A stretch of DNA of 64,000 nucleotides, taken from positions 175,692-239,691 of IMG/VR virus record IMGVR_UViG_3300020576_002947, one strand, 5' to 3'. The notes under the pieces are model-generated. The model was not told the DNA's origin and did not search any database. It was given only the letters and a program-made list of their open reading frames with translations. Position 1 is the stretch's first letter. Every line of letters begins with the position of its first letter. Below, piece after piece: positions 22,626-62,206 of this stretch. A program made the translations under genes and the position numbers. This DNA comes from a virus (taxonomy: Duplodnaviria > Caudoviricetes).

Positions 22626-23698
22626 ATGAAACTGTTCATGAACCCGATCTGGGCTTATCTGGCCCATTCCACTCTCCAGCATCTGGGCTGGAACAATCAG
22701 ACCGCTTCGGTGGTCAGCGTCCCTTCGACCGTCAAGGTCACTGACAGGAAGCAGATGGAGGCTGCATCCTCTCGTCTGCACCAGAACCATAGTCTGATGC
22801 AGAAATCAGCAGCTCTTGAGGCCAAGCACGGCTTCAGGGCTGCTTGTGCAGCGTCCAGGATCGAGATTTCGGGTCTCGATGCCAATGCTGAGCGCAAGGA
22901 GTTCGTCCTTGTTCTCGGCAAGGCTCTGGGTAGCTTCTTTGCTGCTCCTACTCTCACTGCTGGTCAGATGATTCTGGCTGCAGTGGCCGGACTTGTGTGG
23001 CTTCCTCGATTCGTTCGGGAAGTCCTCGCCAAGGTTCGCCTCTTGGTTGGCAAGATGATTCTTGCTGCCAAGAAGGCAGAAGCCATCGCCCAGGCTACCT
23101 ACGTGGCCGAAGTCAAGGCAGCTAGGGTGGCTGCAGCAGAGATGGTTACAGAAGCCATCAGGAGGTGGGCCACTCCGGCTAAGAAGGTTAAGCAGGCCAA
23201 GTAAGGGATTTAATTCCCACGACTGCGGATAGGATAATTAAAATGTCCGATCCTAAGTTGGTTGAGCTTCAGGCAGTTACTAAGGCTGCTTGGGAAGCTT
23301 ATAAGGCTGCATTGTCGGCTGAGAAGACTTACCGCAAGGAAGTTGGACAGGCTGCTGCTGTGGCATGGAAGGCTGAGAGAGCCCAGCTCAATGAGACCGA
23401 GAAGGCTCTTATTGATGAGCTCACTACTGTGCTGGAGAATTCCTTCGCCCAGTGGAGAATGGCTAAGAAGACTGAGTTTGCACAGTGGAAGGCAGACTTG
23501 GCTTTGTCTGATGCCATGAAGACAGCAATTCCACCCAAACCTAAGATGGTGTGGGAAGTAGAGACTGTCGAAGGTGTTAAGCCCTCGACACTCTTGGCGG
23601 CTGCAGGCCAGGTGATTGCTAAGCACAATGAGGCTAAGATCACCAAAGGTCTTGAGCCACTGAAGGTTTCTGCTAGGATCAAGAAGGAGGCTAACTAA
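22626..23698 (+). CDS. two Ala/Lys-rich hypothetical proteins (22626-23204, 23243-23698)
   Basis: SD-preceded ORFs with consistent codon usage. Confidence 0.75.
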
Positions 23699-23844: not shown

Positions 23845-25098
23845 ATGAATCAATTCGAGATTCAAGCACAGAAGATCGTCAACAAGGTCTTCCCTAAGGT
23901 CATTTGTGGTGAGAAGGCCTCTGATCATCTGAGACAGATCATCGAGACCAAGCTGGCTAATGGGAGGCAAGTTACTCTGAGCATCAAACACTCAGATCAT
24001 CAGAAGGCTCTCAGTAGCATTACTGGAGTTCCCTGTGTTGAGGGCTTCAGAATCAAGGACCGCCAGGTTTGGGTCGGCTATGAAGTTAAGCAAAGGCCTT
24101 TTACAGATGCAGATTGTTCTGCACCAAGACTTCGCGTGCATTCTGATGAAGATGGGTATCCTTACGTCTATCGTCTGGAGTGGGTAACTGTGAATCAGAA
24201 GCTTCTTCCTGAGATGCTGGAGGTGGTAACTGATTCAGCTTCTAAAGGACAGAAGACAAGGTTTGGTGTTGTCCAGTCAGGGATGAAGGCTAAGTCGGCT
24301 AACATGGTCGAGTATCATGTTGATACCAAGCACATGGAACGCCTGGGTATTGATATCTTCAGGGATCTGATGACAGGTCCTGGTGGGATGTATTTGGTCT
24401 ACAAATGGTCTCTGGTTAACCAAATGCTTCAAAAGTTTGAGGCTCATTTGGCAATCCATGAGGATCATGAGGCTATCATGAACCACCCAGAACTGCCTGA
24501 CTTTCGAAGAAAGATTAGGGCAATGCTTGGAAAGATGGGCAAGCCTGCGTTTATTTATCACAGGATGTCAATTGGATCGGCTAGTCATAGAGGTATTGAC
24601 CATGCCGACTCACTTGACTACCTGACACTCAATCAAGTGAAGACTATTCCAACGTTTGAGAGAATGTTGGAGATTGGTGCTCAGATCGAAGCTGATGAAA
24701 AGGCTAGGAGAGAGGCATTGAGATACAAGGCTCCTGCATCACCACCTAAAATGTGGGAAGACGATAGCCTGAAGGTGAAACTTCTTCGCCCAGGAATTGA
24801 GTTCATTGTCGAAGGAAGGGAAATGCACCACTGTGTTGGCGGATACAGTGGATTTAACTCCATCATTCTCGGCGTTGAGATTTATGGTGTTCGTGCCACA
24901 GTTGAGCTGAATCGTACAGGAGACATTCGCCAACTAAGAGGCGTCTGCAACGAAGGCCTTCCAATGGAAAGCCAATTCCTTTTCCGAGACTGGCTTAAGA
25001 ACAATCTCAAAGAAGTTCTTGAAACAGTGGAGAATGAGGACTACTACAGTAGTGATCACACTGCTATCGTTGTAGACAACGACCCATTCGCCTGGTAA
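23845..25098 (+). CDS. PcfJ-like domain protein
   Basis: EGREMHHCVGGY...RATVE...QLRGVCN; start placed at ATG after GGAG. Confidence 0.8.
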   Translation: MNQFEIQAQKIVNKVFPKVICGEKASDHLRQIIETKLANGRQVTLSIKHSDHQKALSSITGVPCVEGFRIKDRQVWVGYEVKQRPFTDADCSAPRLRVHSDEDGYPYVYRLEWVTVNQKLLPEMLEVVTDSASKGQKTRFGVVQSGMKAKSANMVEYHVDTKHMERLGIDIFRDLMTGPGGMYLVYKWSLVNQMLQKFEAHLAIHEDHEAIMNHPELPDFRRKIRAMLGKMGKPAFIYHRMSIGSASHRGIDHADSLDYLTLNQVKTIPTFERMLEIGAQIEADEKARREALRYKAPASPPKMWEDDSLKVKLLRPGIEFIVEGREMHHCVGGYSGFNSIILGVEIYGVRATVELNRTGDIRQLRGVCNEGLPMESQFLFRDWLKNNLKEVLETVENEDYYSSDHTAIVVDNDPFAW

Positions 25099-41911: not shown

Positions 41912-44794
41912 ATGGAAGACTTACGAACAACCATTATCAATACTAAACTTGAGTTATCAGATGTTAAGTCTGAGATAACTAAGCTAAGAGCTAAAGAAAA
42001 AACACTTTATGATAAACTTACTAGACTTGCTGCTGATTGTCCTCATTCATGGGATCTTAATATAACACCACAAAAACAATATGGTGCTATTGTCATTAAC
42101 GCTACAAGAAGATGTTCTATTTGTGGTAAAGAACAAAGTACTAACAATACTGAGATAGTGCAACAGTCAAATGGCAGTTATACAGTAGAACCTATTTTTA
42201 AGTAGGTTTAAAACATGGAGTTTATTAAAAACCCTAGATTACTTTTTCCTACACACGGATACCCTATAGGTACTGAATACAGACTGTTACCTGGTGGTGG
42301 AAGACAGATTATTATTAAGAGAATGTGTTATTCTTGTAGATGTAGTGTTGGTCCTTATAACCTAGGACACATGAAAGACAGGGAAAGACCTATACTGCTA
42401 TTTATTAAGTATCATACAGAAAAAGCAGTAACAGCTTCTGATCTTCCTAAGGATGGAGAAACTAAAATTATAACTAATGGAAATAGGTATGCACTTATTT
42501 CAGGTTTTCTGGTTGAAGAGAATGGTGTATGCCTACCTCCTGAAGACCAGATTAATACCAGTAGATTAAGTAGATTCAAATGAGAACACCAAATGGCAGA
42601 AGGGAAAAGTGGTTGTGTTTTAAGAATTGGAGGCCTGTTCTGGCTAGCAAACCTTATCTATACATGTTTGTATTGGGGAGGGTGGCATGCTCTTTTTAAC
42701 ATTTTTGTTCCATATGCTATTATTTTTGATTTAGTTTGGAAGTTTTCTCCTTACATCAGAGGCTAACATTAAGTCTATTGTTATTAGTATTCTAATGTTT
42801 ATACCTATTAGCTATCATCCTGTATTCTGGCATGCTCTTAAAACATTCCCCAAAGATGTTATTACAGGATACTCCTGTTCAAGGACATCAGACATTTCTT
42901 TTGACGAATTCTGTGTTGTTATTTTAAACAACAAGGACTTAGCAGAAGTTCTTTGTGAGATGAAATCAAAGAAATGTATTACAATAGCTCGTCATGTCAC
43001 ACTCGACCCTAATTAGAAGTGCAGAATCTTTTTTTAATTACTTTAATATAAATACTTCCATTTTGAAAAGAAAGGAGTCATTGATGCTACTTAACAATCA
43101 GATTGTGCAGCAAACTAATACTCCTGATGTTATTGTATCTGATATCATGGATTCAACTGAGTTCATAACTATTACTGATCTTAATGGAAACAAAGTTATT
43201 ATTACACTACCTATCAGTATTTATCAGTTAATCAATTCAATTAAAGCATTTAAGTCTAAGCCTATTCTTGAGGCTAATGAGTATTATCTTTGGCGACATT
43301 TTTCTGCTTATGCACCACAAACACTTAAAAAATCTTTTAATGATACATCCTATAATGAAAAATCAAAATCTCCTTGTCCGTCAAGGGCTGATGAGCACTG
43401 TTATTTTGTAGGAGTTGGGATTGTCTTAGATGACAATGGTACCTAAGAGCCTTATTTTTTCAGAGCTTGAAGATACGTTTCCAGATAAGCTCGTTATTCT
43501 TCAAACTGGCAATAAACATGTGATTTACCATGCTAATCTTTCTGGTGAACAGATTGAAGGTCTTGCCTGTTTTAGTTCGGAAGCAAGGGCTAAATCCTTT
43601 GCAGATGGCTGGTGTACTGACTTAATTGCTACCTGTAAAGAAGTAACTAAAGACGAGGCAGTTGAGATAGCTTCTCAAAAGGCCAAGATTAATTGTTTAC
43701 TTCTTTGTGATAATCCTATTGATCCTAAGATGTATTTCTTTAGGTAATTGAAAATGGCACAACCACGATACACCTATCACAATTTTCTTAGTGACTTTAT
43801 TGCTTACTGTAAAGTAAAAGGAACTGATTATATTCCTCAAGATTTTATAAATTTCTTTGCTGACAATTACAGTGATACATATTTCATAGCTCTTTCCAGA
43901 TTTATGGCTGACAATGATGAATGTGGTCCTGAATTGTGCAGAATGCCAAGATATGGCTATGATGCTTTGTTCAACTGTAAACCAGAACACCAAGGAAGCT
44001 TTCTATTAATGGTCCAAAGAAACTGGGAGTATCTTACAGGCCAAACTACTTCAATCTGTGCTCACTGCAAACAAGAGCTGGATGATGTATTGGTAGAGAG
44101 ACAACCAATTGTTGCTTACGAATTTGGACCTGTCATAAAGTTTTATGAGAACCTTTCTATGGATGGAGCAGATAGTATCGAACTTCCTTTGTGTCGAGAA
44201 TGCTCTGTTAAGACTATGAAAAAGGTAATGGAAGTTGCCAGTATTAGTGAAGCAACCTGTCATGCATTACCCAGTTTTAACTAGGACAAACTGAATGAAA
44301 ACCTTGTTGAATTTCATCAAAAACAACATTCAAGTAACTGTTTTTTATATCTATTTTCTTTTCATATTTACTACAGAGTTTGAAAAAGTAAGTAATACAA
44401 GTATATTTATTTTGATATTCATTGGAATTAACGTCTTCCTTGAAACAACGCGTAATTTAGAATCATCTCTAAAAACTAAAGATATAAATAAAGACATAGA
44501 TAAATTCTGTAAAGAAAAAGATTGAAGAGGATGACCAAATTGTCACAATCAATTAAAAGTCTTTATAATTCTATTGTGGCAAAGATTATGTATAGATGGT
44601 TAAGGAAACAGTTTTCTAAAAAGCTAGCTAGGTATCAAGTCCTTGCAAGTAACTATGATTGTGGCTCCTCTGTCATGCACTATATTTGTCCTGAAACTTC
44701 AATCCTATATAATGACCTAACTGATATGCTACAAACAATCAAAGAGTTTGAAGCATACATTAATATTCCTATTGAACAAAGAATAAAACTGTAA
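41912..44794 (+). CDS. cluster of hypothetical proteins (41912, 42215, 42795, 42994, 43430, 43748, 44295, 44522); several with CxxC Zn motifs
   Basis: Coupled ORFs; CPH..CSICG, CYSC, CAHC..CREC. Confidence 0.65.
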
Positions 44795-44801
44795 CGAACA
44801 T

Positions 44802-44875
44802 GGGAGGTTAGCTCAGTGGTAGAGCAACGCACTTTTAATGCGTGGGTCACGGGTTCGAGCCCCGTACCTCCTACC
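44802..44875 (+). tRNA. trnK: tRNA-Lys (TTT)
   Basis: gggaggt/acctcct acceptor, acgca-ctTTTaa-tgcgt anticodon arm, ggttcgag T arm, encoded CCA. Confidence 0.92.
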
Positions 44876-45146
44876 AAGTTTCAAGGAATCTAATATGGAA
44901 ACACAAGAGCATACCCTTCTAACAGCTTTAAAATCTTGGATATCAGCTATAGCAACCCAGAAACATTGGATTATTGCTGATCTTCACATTCATTTTGCTG
45001 CTGCTGATTTCCTTGATGAGCATTTAGATGATCTTTACGATATTCCTATAAAACATTGGCCTAAAGTAGTTGGTATTGAATACGATGGAGACCAACTAAT
45101 TATTACATGGCTTAAAACTAATTAACATCTTAGGGGAAGCAGCATC

Positions 45147-46684: not shown

Positions 46685-46733
46685 GGGCGGTTAGCTCAGT
46701 AAATAGCAAGTACAAATCCTCGGGTGGCGCCCA
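46685..46733 (+). pseudogene. decayed tRNA (Val-like 5' end)
   Basis: gggcggttagctcagt ... tacaaatcct ... cgccca. Confidence 0.45.
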
Positions 46734-46764
46734 GTCCGGCCAAAGGTACCTTATAAAAAAATAT

Positions 46765-46841
46765 CCTCCCATAGCTCAACGGTAGAGCAGTGCTGTTACA
46801 TAGCAAAGGTTAGTCGAGTTCAAATCTCCTTGGGAGGACCA
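46765..46841 (+). tRNA. trnV: tRNA-Val (TAC), imperfect T stem, possibly pseudo
   Basis: cctccca/tgggagg acceptor, gctc/gagc D arm, tgct-gtTACat-agca, gttcaaatc, ACCA. Confidence 0.6.
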
Positions 46842-46844
46842 AAC

Positions 46845-47063
46845 TTATTCTTCGTATCCTTTAAAGGATCTAAGATATCTATTTCTCTTAGTATCTTTCT
46901 TCTGCTTTGATGTAAAAGTATCAGTTTGTGTATGACAATTGGGGCATAATAGACGTAAGTTTTCTGGAAAGTTATTATCGGAATTACCGTCTATATGATC
47001 TAGTTGCAAGATTAAAGGCAACTCATTCCAAATAGTATTCTGACCACAGATTGAACAACATTC
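46845..47063 (-). pseudogene. 5'-truncated HNH endonuclease remnant (not in ORF track)
   Basis: Translates ECCSICGQNTIWNELPLILQLDHIDGNSDNNFPENLRLLCPNCHTQTDTF...YEE*; no upstream start; paralog of 49055-49675. Confidence 0.85.
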
Positions 47064-47189
47064 CTGATTATAATAGTTTTTAATTATGGATTAGAATATA
47101 ATGATGAAGGTACTTTAATTTATAGAGACCATGCATTTATTACTGAGCACAGTTCTTCTGGTAATGGTGGTGAGAAACTTGTTTGTGTA

Positions 47190-47432: not shown

Positions 47433-47483
47433 ACTATAACAAACAACGTGCCCGGATGGCGGAATGGCAGACGCAGCGGACTT

Positions 47484-48215
47484 TTAAAATTCTACACATT
47501 TTGCACTAATTAACTGAGTCTACCTATTACATTATAGGTATGGAACAGTTGATATGCAAAGTATGTGGAAGCCCTAGAAAGAAAGGTAGGCGCTTATGCA
47601 GTAAATGCAACAGCGATAGAATGGCTCAATATCCCAGATATACTTGGGAGAAAGAATGTGTGGCTTGTAAAGAGGTTTTCTCGGCTCTTAGAAAACGATC
47701 TATTCTATGTCCTGATTGTTATAAACAGTCTAGGAAAAAAGAGGACTTGTCCTCAAATAACTACGTACCAGGGAAACCTAATAAACGTGGTCATAGAATA
47801 ATCGCAGAAAAGATCTTGGGAAGAATCTTAAGCTATAACGAAGTTGTTCACCACCTAAATGAAGATCCAAAAGATAACTCTGTAGACAACCTTTGGGTAA
47901 TGTCAAGGAGAGATCATGCAAGACTTCATTCTTTTCTAGAGTTACAAAGAGTCATATGGGAGAAATCCTATACGGAGAAGAGTGTAAATTGCTGGAATAT
48001 CGTTAGAGTCTTGCAAACTACAGCATGGTTGGAAACAACGGGTGCGAAAGTTCTAAAATTGCAAGAATTCGACAATCAGCAGCCAAGCCCCTAAGGAGAA
48101 ATCTATGGGGAAGGTTCAGAGACTATACACACTCAACCCAAACGTGTAATGACGTGGGTTATGATATAGTCCAGCGCACAACTTGCAAGAGGATCGTGAA
48201 AGCGATAGTGTGATG
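47484..48215 (+). mobile_element. group I intron (732 nt) carrying an HNH endonuclease ORF
   Basis: P1 gactt/gagtc with U-G at splice site; aattgctggaa, aatcagcagcc, gttcagagactatac, atgatatagtcc; terminal G. Confidence 0.92.
47540..48094 (+). CDS. intron-encoded HNH homing endonuclease
   Basis: CxxC Zn motifs; HRIIAEKILGR..EVVHHLNEDPKDNSVDNLWVM..H; C-terminus reads into intron core. Confidence 0.9.
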   Translation: MEQLICKVCGSPRKKGRRLCSKCNSDRMAQYPRYTWEKECVACKEVFSALRKRSILCPDCYKQSRKKEDLSSNNYVPGKPNKRGHRIIAEKILGRILSYNEVVHHLNEDPKDNSVDNLWVMSRRDHARLHSFLELQRVIWEKSYTEKSVNCWNIVRVLQTTAWLETTGAKVLKLQEFDNQQPSP

Positions 48216-48285
48216 AAACTCCGCAGCCACTTGTGGCATGGGGGTTCGAGTCCCCCTCTGGGCACCACAACTTTAAGGAGAAACA

Positions 48286-49014: not shown

Positions 49015-49040
49015 TGCCTCTTCGTCTAAGGGTAGGACAC
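49015..49040 (+). pseudogene. 5' half of split outer tRNA (Gln-like)
   Basis: tgcctct-tc-gtc-taagggtag-gac; acceptor strand pairs with agaggca at 49717-49723. Confidence 0.75.
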
Positions 49041-49048
49041 AAAGTTGT

Positions 49049-49119
49049 TGCCTCTTAGTGAAATGGTACCACGCCTGCCTTTGGTGCAGGAGTTTCAGGT
49101 TCGAGTCCTGGAGAGGCAA
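49049..49119 (+). tRNA. trnQ: tRNA-Gln (TTG), nested, no encoded CCA
   Basis: tgcctct/agaggca, gtg/cac D arm, cctgc-ctTTGgt-gcagg, tcagg-ttcgagt-cctgg. Confidence 0.85.
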
Positions 49120-49675
49120 CAACTTTAACCTTTCTTTTAGTATTCTTACCACAGAAAGTATCAGTTTGGCTATGACAGTTAGGACATAAAAGCTCCAAAT
49201 TCTCTAGGCGATTATCTGTCTTAATACCATTCTTATGCTCCAACTGTAATACAAGAGGCTTATCTCTCCAAATAGGGTCAGTACCACACCCTGCACATTG
49301 ATTTAGCAATAGACCTTCTTTAAGTAAGCGTCTTTTCAGATAACCTCTGCTAGTTTGAGGTCTATCTATAACTAGTAGTTCTTCTATTGGAATAGGCTCT
49401 TTCTTTATTAGAATCAAATCTCCTCTTTTAGTAGCTTTTTCAATGGACCTTTTGGAAATGCCACAAGATGTAGCAGTAGTTCTAATAGATTGAAGATCGT
49501 TATAAATACTTTGAATTTCGCACCAATTAAGAACTTTTGCGACAGGCCTACTTAGTACATCTTTAGATGTACAAATCCAAGCTATTGTAGATTTAGGTAT
49601 CTTAGTAATATGGGAAATCTTCCCATAACTCTTTCCCTCTTTCCTCAGCTTAAGAACTACATCTCTACTATGCAT
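49055..49675 (-). CDS. HTH-HNH endonuclease, antisense to tRNAs
   Basis: Start MHSRDVV; HTH GKSYGKIS..IPKSTI; CAGCG..LQLEHKNG..DNRLENLELLCPNCHSQT; C-terminus reads antisense through tRNA-Gln. Confidence 0.9.
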   Translation of the reverse strand: MHSRDVVLKLRKEGKSYGKISHITKIPKSTIAWICTSKDVLSRPVAKVLNWCEIQSIYNDLQSIRTTATSCGISKRSIEKATKRGDLILIKKEPIPIEELLVIDRPQTSRGYLKRRLLKEGLLLNQCAGCGTDPIWRDKPLVLQLEHKNGIKTDNRLENLELLCPNCHSQTDTFCGKNTKRKVKVVASPGLEPETPAPKAGVVPFH

Positions 49676-49693
49676 TACTGTACTAATAATGTA

Positions 49694-49727
49694 AGGGGTC
49701 GGGGTTCGAGTCCCTGAGAGGCAGCCA
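49694..49727 (+). pseudogene. 3' half of split outer tRNA (Gln-like)
   Basis: cgggg-ttcgagt-ccctg-agaggca-g-CCA. Confidence 0.8.
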
Positions 49728-52860: not shown

Positions 52861-54381
52861 ATGGGACTTTTTGGATTTGTTAAAGACGTTCTAGTAGATG
52901 GACTTGGAGGGTCTAATGTCGTATGGGCTATTGGTTCTCAAGCTATTAAATCAAAACTTCCACAATGGAAAGAAATGGGCTATGAAGAAAAGCCTAAGTT
53001 TGGAATTCTTAAAGGTCTTAACCAGTTTTATTATGATCTTCCAGTAATTAATCAACCTAGATCAGTACCTGCTAAAATTGAACTGCACGAAGCTAAAAGA
53101 GCTGGCACTCATCTTGACTTTAGATTTAAAGTAGATGGCCGTGTTTATGATTTTGCTGTTGTTAAAACAGACATTTTCCCAGAAAAGACTGGTATCGTAC
53201 AGAGAGTTGTAAGAAGACATAACCACTCTCTTAAGTATTTTGATAAGGAATCTTTTGTCTTCCCAGAAGGATCATATGGAGAAGGCAAGATGAAAACTAT
53301 CTGGAGAGGTGATATTGATATCATCGAAATGTCACCAGAAAAGATGGAATTCAGTATCAATGAAGGTAAATTCCAGGGTCGTTATTGTATCTTTACTGAA
53401 AAGTCTCCCATTCTTAATGAGGCTGCAGGAATGATACGTATGAAAGACCCTGTTTTGATTCATAAAGACAGATCTAAATTCTCATCTGATCCAAAGAAGC
53501 TTGAAGTTGCTTATGGAGACCCTGATACTATTTCTGAGTGGAAAGTTGATGGAGCTAACTATACTCTAAGATCTGGTGATAAACCAGGAACTAATCAATT
53601 GATTAGTAGAAGACTTTCAGTAACAGGAGAACCAATTAACCAGGTGGATAAGCTTCCTAGCCTGAAGTTTTATAAGATTCCTGATAAATTTAAAAACAGA
53701 GCTATCCATGGAGAAGTATCCACAACCTACGAAAATGTTGCTAAGACAGCAGGAACCTTAAACAGTAATTCAACTAGATCTAGAAACCTTCAAAGTACTG
53801 GAAAGTATGGTGATAGGCTTGTTTTCAATGTTTGGGATATTGAAGGAGAGGGTACATATGAAGAACGTAGTCTCGAACTTCGTGAATTAGCTAAAAGCTC
53901 TCCTAGAATTGATAATAGATATTTTGGTGACAGAAGAGACCAGTTCTGGTTTAGAAGAATCACAAACCCACGAGTTATTGCTCCTGTTGCAAACAACAGA
54001 GACCTAAAATGCTCTCCTAAGGAATTTACTGATTTGGTTAAGCAAGTAGGAGGAGAAGGAACTGTTCTTAAGAACCTTAAAGCTAAATACTATGAAGATA
54101 CTTGGCTAAAAGATAAAGCTTCTGACACACACACTCTTAAGATTATTAATTTTAAAGAAGGTAATGAGAAGTATACTGGAAGTCTAGGCGCTCTTATTGT
54201 TGAATCAGATGATGGTACTATCAAAGGTACCGTTGGAACAGGATTCAGTGACGAACTTAGACAGAATATCTGGGATAACAGAGAAGATTTAAAAGGTTCT
54301 TATATTGAAGCAGAGTGTCATGAAGTGACAGAAAATGGTGTTCTAAGAGGACCCAGATTTAAAGAATTCAGTCGGGGTTAA
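52861..54381 (+). CDS. ATP-dependent DNA ligase with N-terminal LigD 3'-phosphoesterase domain
   Basis: HEAKRAGTHLDFRF..HSLKY..EGSYGEG (PE); EWKVDG, HGE, FNVWD, EGTVLK, WLKDK; OB fold VGTGFSDE..LRGPRF. Confidence 0.9.
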   Translation: MGLFGFVKDVLVDGLGGSNVVWAIGSQAIKSKLPQWKEMGYEEKPKFGILKGLNQFYYDLPVINQPRSVPAKIELHEAKRAGTHLDFRFKVDGRVYDFAVVKTDIFPEKTGIVQRVVRRHNHSLKYFDKESFVFPEGSYGEGKMKTIWRGDIDIIEMSPEKMEFSINEGKFQGRYCIFTEKSPILNEAAGMIRMKDPVLIHKDRSKFSSDPKKLEVAYGDPDTISEWKVDGANYTLRSGDKPGTNQLISRRLSVTGEPINQVDKLPSLKFYKIPDKFKNRAIHGEVSTTYENVAKTAGTLNSNSTRSRNLQSTGKYGDRLVFNVWDIEGEGTYEERSLELRELAKSSPRIDNRYFGDRRDQFWFRRITNPRVIAPVANNRDLKCSPKEFTDLVKQVGGEGTVLKNLKAKYYEDTWLKDKASDTHTLKIINFKEGNEKYTGSLGALIVESDDGTIKGTVGTGFSDELRQNIWDNREDLKGSYIEAECHEVTENGVLRGPRFKEFSRG

Positions 54382-61551: not shown

Positions 61552-62139
61552 CTATATATGTCTACAGTCTGGGTATGACTCAGCGGTAGAGTGTCTACTT
61601 ATCTCCTGAGCTATTTGTTCCGAGATTAACTCCTTAAACTTCTTGCTATGGATATACTTATGGTGAGTTGGGCAAAGCGGAATTAGATTTGAAGGTGTAT
61701 TATCCAAACGATTACTGTTTAGATGATGCACTTCCACAATATTCTGCTCATTACAAACCAAACACTTATGTGGATACGTTTCAAAACAAATAGAACGGTA
61801 ACAAGACTTACCTAATACCCAATTTGGATGCTTAGTTCTTGAGCGGAAATAAGTATTGGAGCATGATTTAGAACATACTGACTTTTCTTTTGCCGTACCT
61901 ACTACAGTCTGAAACTCCTTACTGCAAACAGGGCAAATCTTTACCTTTCGTAAGTGTTGATACCTTTTTGCTTTATACCCATTTTGTAGATCATCCCTCC
62001 ATCCTTTAATGGATAGGAGCTCTTTTAAGATTGCCCTATATCTTTGGTTAGTAGGAGATTTTAATCTAACTAGAAGATTATTAAGGCTAGTTGCTTCATC
62101 AGCAATTTCTTTAGTAAGATTTCTTTCGATCAGTGTCAC
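61552..62139 (-). CDS. HNH endonuclease, antisense inside a split tRNA
   Basis: CPVC..CSKSC, CLVC..EVHHLNSNRLDNTPSNLIPLCPTHH. Confidence 0.88.
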   Translation of the reverse strand: MTLIERNLTKEIADEATSLNNLLVRLKSPTNQRYRAILKELLSIKGWRDDLQNGYKAKRYQHLRKVKICPVCSKEFQTVVGTAKEKSVCSKSCSNTYFRSRTKHPNWVLGKSCYRSICFETYPHKCLVCNEQNIVEVHHLNSNRLDNTPSNLIPLCPTHHKYIHSKKFKELISEQIAQEISRHSTAESYPDCRHI

Positions 62140-62206
62140 ATTAACAATAGAGATCGGATATGCTGCGATTGAAAGACGAATAGTTCAAATCCTGCTATCC
62201 AGACCA
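61569..62206 (+). pseudogene. split tRNA (Pro-like): 5' half 61569-61600, 3' half ~62180-62206
   Basis: ctgggta-tg-actc-agcggta-gagt-g-tctac-tt ... gttcaaatcctgc-tatccag-a-CCA; acceptor strands pair; T stem decayed. Confidence 0.7.

Follow-up and report, generated by a model that had tools for sequence, protein, structure and literature searches.

A phage tRNA-Gln gene split by an antisense HNH gene and a divergent tRNA-Gln: a probable free-standing homing endonuclease that destroys its target

What kind of element breaks a tRNA-Gln gene of a phage in two and occupies the break together with an antisense nuclease gene and a second, complete tRNA-Gln? The locus that raises this question lies in the final 64 kb of a 239,691-bp virus record (this whole stretch of 64,000 nucleotides is called the window here), within a loose plus-strand cluster of genes for tRNA-Lys, tRNA-Val, an intron-split tRNA-Leu and tRNA-Gln. 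The resident tRNA-Gln gene is split, its anticodon arm is gone, no intron is present, and apart from the tRNA-Gln of the insert ARAGORN calls none in the genome. We favor, with a probability of about 0.7, the reading that a free-standing homing endonuclease has produced the locus, destroying the tRNA-Gln that it targets and bringing with it, in this case, a divergent tRNA-Gln(TTG). The parts of the locus are as follows:

49015 to 49040, plus strand: 5' remnant of the resident tRNA-Gln (acceptor strand and D arm, positions 1-27)
49041 to 49055, plus strand: left arm of the inverted repeat (8-nt linker and inner acceptor 5' strand)
49049 to 49119, plus strand: inner complete tRNA-Gln(TTG) (ARAGORN; Rfam RF00005, 60.7 bits, E 1.6e-11)
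49112 to 49126, plus strand: right arm of the inverted repeat (inner acceptor 3' strand and trailer; HNH coding sequence on the minus strand)
49055 to 49675, minus strand: HNH endonuclease gene, 206 aa (Pfam HNH and HTH; PHROG 10822, E 3.9e-30)
49700 to 49727, plus strand: 3' remnant of the resident tRNA-Gln (T arm, acceptor strand, G73 and CCA)

The broken gene can be identified by comparison with an intact tRNA-Gln(TTG) on an 11.7-kb contig of another phage, L011. The 5' remnant matches it at 29/31 positions and the 3' remnant at 27/27 (over 49701-49727), which makes the outer gene a tRNA-Gln from which the anticodon arm has been deleted. On the 5' side, the match runs through position 27, after which the inverted repeat starts; the remnant possibly reaches 49044, as 49040-49044 fits the 5' strand of the L011 anticodon stem. 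On the 3' side, the T arm begins at 49700 and is followed by the acceptor strand (49717-49723), G73 (49724) and CCA (49725-49727), while the preceding 49694-49699, perhaps variable loop, differ from L011. Together, the remnants form a 7-bp acceptor stem including a T1-A72 pair. Lost relative to L011 are the anticodon loop, the 3' anticodon strand and the variable region (about positions 28-32 to 48). An earlier note on this DNA, made from its letters and open reading frames, had placed the two halves, the 3' one with its CCA, some 650 nt apart, and both are indeed present, separated by a gap of 653 nt (49041-49693). It had also seen no group I core; an Rfam search of 49015-49727 to an E of 5 returns no group I or group II intron, although the same search detects a group I intron about 1 kb upstream, at 47924-48189. 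In-silico joins of the outer halves gave no tRNA-Gln, only assorted calls at a relaxed threshold. The sole ORF of the insert is the HNH gene, whose product has domain matches to HNH and HTH only and none to GIY-YIG, and no integrase is encoded. The note's picture of an intron-less HNH element breaking a tRNA at the anticodon arm is upheld by the match of the halves to the intact L011 gene and by homologs, described below, that break or replace tRNA-Gln in cultured phages.

The inner tRNA folds into a cloverleaf with T1-A72 and carries its TTG anticodon at 49081-49083. Its acceptor stem (7 bp) and T loop are identical to those of the outer gene, while the D, anticodon and T stems differ; the earlier note had recognized this complete tRNA with the same acceptor stem and different D and anticodon arms, and the divergence extends to the T stem as well. 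Likewise borne out were the perfect 15-bp inverted repeat and the missing CCA, in the place of which CAA stands after the tRNA. The repeat lengthens the inner acceptor stem by 8 bp, which is not attributable to chance, since none of 561 other tRNA genes has an extension of more than 2 bp; its left arm repeats HNH codons 184-188 in inverted orientation. No such repeat was seen at the other nested loci inspected (the G000 Asn locus, the Val and Lys loci and the homolog loci), and hence the repeat is no constant feature by which to define the element. It is most simply read from its sequence as a repair scar left by a template switch at insertion. More speculatively, the pairing of leader and trailer might let the inner tRNA outcompete the outer 5' remnant for the acceptor partner or, conversely, might hinder 5' and 3' processing. 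That the inner tRNA is a cleavage-resistant replacement, as the earlier note had it, is a conjecture, and whether it serves as a functional tRNA-Gln we put at about even odds: the lack of CCA, an A13xC22 mismatch and a G19A change in a close relative are signs of possible decay.

In the protein encoded across from it, two helix-turn-helix-like modules at the N-terminus precede a Zn-bound HNH domain, the catalytic and Zn residues of which are intact in alignment (C127, C130, E146-H147, N159, C164, C167 and H168). As the earlier note had stated of the last ~20 codons and stop of this minus-strand gene, residues 187-206 and the TAA stop lie antisense within the inner tRNA. Since many homologs end near residue 180, this tail is a read-through into the antisense tRNA. 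The structure model has a pLDDT of 88 with a low-confidence tail, and a Foldseek search of it against the PDB returned weak HTH and HNH rows, none of them reaching an E of 0.001. A promoter and terminator scan gave no signal above shuffled sequences, and neither a promoter nor a ribosome-binding site was identified for the antisense gene; its start codon is embedded in a weak 7-bp hairpin, on the 3' side of the stem (window 49673-49691, minus strand), with no obvious ribosome-binding site. One RNA sequencing run that was compared gave no piece on the tRNA parts, a result with no bearing on expression. The genome also has a tRNA with a CUA anticodon outside the window (G000 23986-24058). Read-through of the HNH stop by this tRNA was considered and dropped, as the stop is TAA. 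TAG terminates 21/111 long ORFs, and thus there is no clear recoding despite the CUA tRNA.

A 97%-identical phage from sequencing run SRR25018320 (L014) has the same cassette layout with 6 differences. The earlier note had named misassembly, visible in read mapping, as one thing that would overturn its reading, and inverted repeats and repeated acceptor stems can indeed mislead assemblers into joining two tRNA-Gln alleles; however, since L014 is a different strain from a separate run and carries the same insert, it already refutes an artefact. Two further assemblies (L255 and L256) are identical to the window, though they may share its source, and contigs of two other studies bridge the HNH start and the outer 3' half, leaving the probability of an artefact practically negligible. 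Between the window and L014, the cassette has 6/713 differences (0.84%) against 157/6212 (2.5%) in the flanks (p 0.0025), although this low divergence is not specific to the cassette, 42000-44000 showing only 4 differences. The HNH gene differs by 0 synonymous and 5 non-synonymous changes, compared with 68 and 40 in the neighboring genes (p 0.009). The comparison fits a young cassette that would have spread recently and then drifted. Two of the six cassette differences lie within the inner tRNA, namely C3T, which keeps a G.U pair, and G19A, which puts A at a near-universal base in L014; there is hence no evidence of purifying selection on the inner tRNA. The outer halves show zero differences.

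The Gln locus has counterparts in the same genome. One of them concerns tRNA-Val:

46685 to 47080, no strand assigned: sister Val event, with a decayed Val relic, a divergent tRNA-Val(TAC) and a remnant of a paralogous HNH gene
46765 to 46841, plus strand: the divergent tRNA-Val(TAC) inside this event
stop at 46845, minus strand: the paralogous HNH remnant (49% identity over 69 aa)

At this locus, L014 has one intact Val(TAC) and no HNH. The Lys locus shows the reciprocal state: the window has an intact Lys(TTT) at 44802-44876, of which L014 retains the 5' part, with an unrelated, atypical Lys(TTT) behind it and no HNH left. The filled and empty Val and Lys alleles are thus reciprocal between the two genomes, each filled one with a same-anticodon substitute. 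Outside the window, at G000 142-867, an Asn gene is split by a divergent Asn(GTT), flanked by an 8-nt direct repeat, and an antisense HNH gene of another subfamily; G000 23452-23657 resembles a decayed Leu case. At window 61552-62206, tRNA halves with pairing acceptor strands are split by an antisense HNH-like ORF with no substitute. Judging from these alleles, the tRNA-replacing process is a recurrent one in this phage lineage. Several other elements of the region may be recorded here. The 61552-62206 locus lies just downstream of a gene for a TROVE-domain protein and tRNA-like elements; a tRNA-Leu(TAA) at window 47449-48270 is interrupted by a group I intron (RF00028, 70.9 bits) in which a 184-aa HNH_3 ORF lies in sense orientation, and the Leu(TAA) of L014 differs from it and has no intron; and window 52861-54381 encodes an ATP-dependent DNA ligase with an N-terminal LigD 3'-phosphoesterase domain.

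Beyond this lineage, homologs of the HNH protein are shown by their genomic neighborhoods to be tied to tRNA genes, above all those for tRNA-Gln. A complete tRNA lies within about 250 nt in 218/244 homolog loci, and the nearest one is tRNA-Gln in 71/80 bacterial, 44/80 metagenomic and 24/84 viral loci. Members of the family adjoin intact tRNAs in all four orientations, and most loci are without remnants. Nonetheless, the nested layout occurs at four further loci (Gln in L219, Leu in L069, Trp in L232 and Phe in L082), with the HNH gene in either orientation and a whole inner tRNA that looks to be of the same type as the bracketing halves, the outer types having been assigned by eye from acceptor and discriminator bases. 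The remnants were sought by two heuristic scans, each of which returned 2/4 of these loci; in the stricter one, about 0.08 chance pairings are expected among 7 candidate pairs. A near-identical tRNA-Gln(TTG) lies antisense across the 3' end of the homologous HNH gene in L020, L044 and L249, the last of which has unrelated flanks. L044 also bears a decayed Gln-like 3' part on the other side, and in L087, a duplication-type variant, the first ~29 nt of a tRNA-Leu(TAG) are duplicated exactly, with one copy on either side of a sense HNH gene.

In bacteria of the Solirubrobacterales, Armatimonadota and Eremiobacterota/Vulcanimicrobiota (L095-L174), most of the genomes sampled have the family next to a chromosomal tRNA-Gln(CTG); its orientation depends on the lineage, and its presence among relatives is patchy: among those of one Solirubrobacterales genome, the HNH gene is beside tRNA-Gln(CTG) in 6/25 genomes where the tRNA was found. 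The HNH-adjacent tRNA-Gln(CTG) genes are more unusual than others (median nearest-neighbor difference 7.5 vs 1, p 0.015, uncorrected for kinship), with an exception in an HNH-positive bacterial locus (L264) whose tRNA-Gln is identical to that of HNH-negative relatives. A motif on the 3' side of the D arm is a candidate target, being common to four destroyed targets and absent from both inner tRNAs, though it is no rarer in HNH-adjacent tRNA-Gln genes (12/147) than in others (1/14).

The strongest evidence is that of cultured phages, which provide both filled and empty alleles of tRNA-Gln genes. Enterococcus phage Bop (vB_OCPT_Bop, ON125307) encodes a homolog (39% over 160 aa, E 1.6e-32) whose gene lies in sense orientation (L289:786-1615) between positions 27 and 42 of a tRNA-Gln, with 14 nt of the anticodon arm deleted. 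This split gene is unannotated; its intact counterpart is found in EfV12-phi1 at L290:427-498, and an intact tRNA-Gln is annotated in at least 15 Bop relatives with about 99% identical flanks. In the T4-like phages ACG-C40 (L285:1380-2016) and teqhad, a homolog occupies the place of the tRNA-Gln of ime09 (L291), the first gene of the tRNA cluster, of which 7-9 nt are left over; L293 shows the same F-TflIV-like HNH gene in place of tRNA-Gln as ACG-C40, and 64/659 matching records carry most of this filled region. No spare tRNA is present at the Bop or ACG-C40 locus, so that a spare is optional for the family. The cultured filled and empty pairs, Bop and 113 vs EfV12-phi1 and EFDG1 in Enterococcus and ACG-C40 and teqhad vs ime09 among the T4-like phages, make both target and homing directly testable. 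Enterococcus phage 113 (MZ147816, L292:1350-1990) has, next to the split tRNA-Gln, a second HNH gene that appears to break a tRNA-Ser(GCT) just after the D loop.

For the locus in question, the earlier note had looked to related phages for an empty tRNA-Gln allele, and none was found in a close relative, the L014 allele also being filled. Searches with the neighboring genes recovered only L014, L255 and L256; sequence-pattern searches for an intact allele gave only L011 and nothing among metagenome contigs; and four sequencing runs with a low share of the phage yielded scattered pieces without the joint of an empty allele. L011 has no protein similarity to the phage genome over its 11.7 kb, and it hence serves as a model of the target rather than as an allele of kin.

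The favored reading can be spelled out as a sequence of events. A cassette consisting of the HNH gene and an attached divergent tRNA-Gln(TTG) would have recombined into the resident tRNA-Gln gene, the original insertion being an illegitimate repair event in which a template switch may have copied the opposite strand of the cassette across the palindrome of the acceptor stem, leaving the inverted repeat. This switch was possibly primed by the 4-nt microhomology at 49041-49044, which also fits the resident anticodon stem. In a mixed infection, the nuclease would then cut an intact tRNA-Gln allele at or near the border of the D and anticodon arms, and repair on the filled genome, with the remnants and flanks as homology, would copy the cassette. 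The filled allele, with its target split, should be immune; the cargo tRNA must also escape cutting, presumably through the parts other than acceptor stem and T loop, in which it diverges from the target. The spare tRNA would offset the loss of the resident tRNA-Gln.

The part of this scheme most open to dispute is the role of the inner tRNA. After the same nuclease invasion, it might be a neutral passenger that came from the donor or in a second insertion, unselected and not necessarily matured, as might be expected from the many family loci that adjoin intact tRNAs in any of the four orientations with no remnants, and from Bop, ACG-C40 and window 61552-62206, where the target is split with no substitute. 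The absent CCA, the G19A change in L014 and the pairing of leader with trailer, which could hinder processing, point the same way. However, in every nested case seen the inner tRNA appears to be of the broken type (Gln, Asn, Val and Lys in these phages; Gln, Leu, Trp and Phe elsewhere), which is not expected of random passengers, even if a target preference alone could still give such matching with no selection for function. A casual passenger also sits poorly with an HNH gene that takes its stop codon from inside the tRNA, and with the near-identical antisense tRNA-Gln at the HNH 3' end of L020, L044 and L249 despite the different flanks of the last. On balance, we regard an unselected passenger as unlikely.

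Far less probable is that the inner gene was reconstituted at an att site by an integrase-type element or is a decayed local tandem duplication. The identical acceptor stems and T loops of the inner and outer genes could be so explained, and a true 5' duplication does surround the homolog in L087; but the inner gene is complete and divergent in its D, anticodon and T stems rather than a hybrid of resident and incoming sequence, the resident anticodon arm has been deleted, the insert lacks an integrase, and this acceptor stem is also shared by unrelated tRNA-Gln genes of phages. We give hardly any credence to continued use of the outer halves through an unrecognized intron or split-tRNA joining. 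A predicted fold of the full transcript pairs their acceptor strands, the 3' half keeps its CCA and both are identical to those of L014, an integrity that the youth of the cassette accounts for, whereas the anticodon loop and the 3' strand of its stem are missing, no group I or II intron is matched and the joins yield no Gln tRNA.

The destruction of the target by a homing endonuclease, which thus remains our preferred reading, may be set against known systems. The closest named homolog is F-TflIV of phage T5 (hegA; AY543070 T5.075), with 51% identity over 69 aa of the catalytic domain (E 1.5e-20), which is reported to be a site-specific endonuclease (Akulenko et al. 2004, PMID 15456135, as cited in PMC2330249 and PMC10644984). 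Like the window HNH gene it is free-standing and adjoins tRNA genes, but hegA lies in sense orientation downstream of an intact tRNA(CAU), with no split tRNA or substitute annotated, and its target may differ, since the similarity covers the nuclease domain only. SegB of T4 and T6 is likewise free-standing; it cleaves the tRNA genes of related phages internally and, in co-infection, passes itself and neighboring tRNA genes on at nearly 100% (PMC2330249, PMC2988022, PMC13096335). It is, however, a GIY-YIG enzyme that recognizes the T arm and 3' end of many tRNA genes and lies between intact genes in a genome that keeps cleavable sites, in contrast to the window element, an HNH gene inside its target with the anticodon arm deleted and a whole substitute carried along. 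Among the coding genes within tRNA arrays or next to them, HNH genes are reported to be the most frequent, and it has been suggested, speculatively, that they spread the arrays and diversify tRNA repertoires (PMC5966550, PMC6409571, PMC8421152); these accounts concern co-location and, in the portions available, describe no split remnants with a nested same-type tRNA.

Endonucleases of group I introns in tRNA anticodon loops, such as that at window 47449-48270, also reside within a tRNA gene and are immune through the interruption of their target. Such an intron splices the host tRNA back together, whereas the window insert has no ribozyme, has cost the resident gene part of its sequence and carries its ORF antisense. 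Integrative elements that target tRNA genes break the gene and supply sequence that keeps a working tRNA, using an integrase and a duplicated part of the tRNA that forms a hybrid gene; the window element differs from them in lacking an integrase, in its whole and divergent substitute and in the loss of target DNA. In the literature searched, to which Pope et al. 2014 (on cluster M mycobacteriophages) and Akulenko et al. 2004 did not belong, we found no description of a split tRNA with a nested same-type tRNA and an HNH gene. From its sequence features, the locus would then be a free-standing homing endonuclease of variant design, with a nested replacement layout that is apparently undescribed.

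These comparisons suggest that a selfish nuclease need neither be spliced out with an intron nor settle beside its target in order to persist in an RNA gene; as a third option, it can destroy the gene and bring a spare, following the logic of engineered cleave-and-rescue drives. The locus adds the Gln specialization of the family, reciprocal alleles in a near-identical phage and the two cultured phage pairs, and it points to a target of the large F-TflIV-like HNH family. As a tentative generalization, to which we give somewhat less than an even chance, it may represent a widespread and apparently undescribed class of 'cut-and-replace' gene drives on tRNA genes, in which F-TflIV-like HNH nucleases, specialized on tRNA-Gln and other tRNAs, would insert into the genes that they cut and bring along a tRNA of matching type that works and resists cleavage. 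Codon use or escape from anticodon nucleases of the host is the usual explanation for the odd, fast-changing tRNA sets of large phages, for which the destroy-and-spare cycle would offer a concrete cause. If real, cut-and-replace drives would turn over and diversify the tRNA-Gln sequences of phages and possibly those of bacteria.
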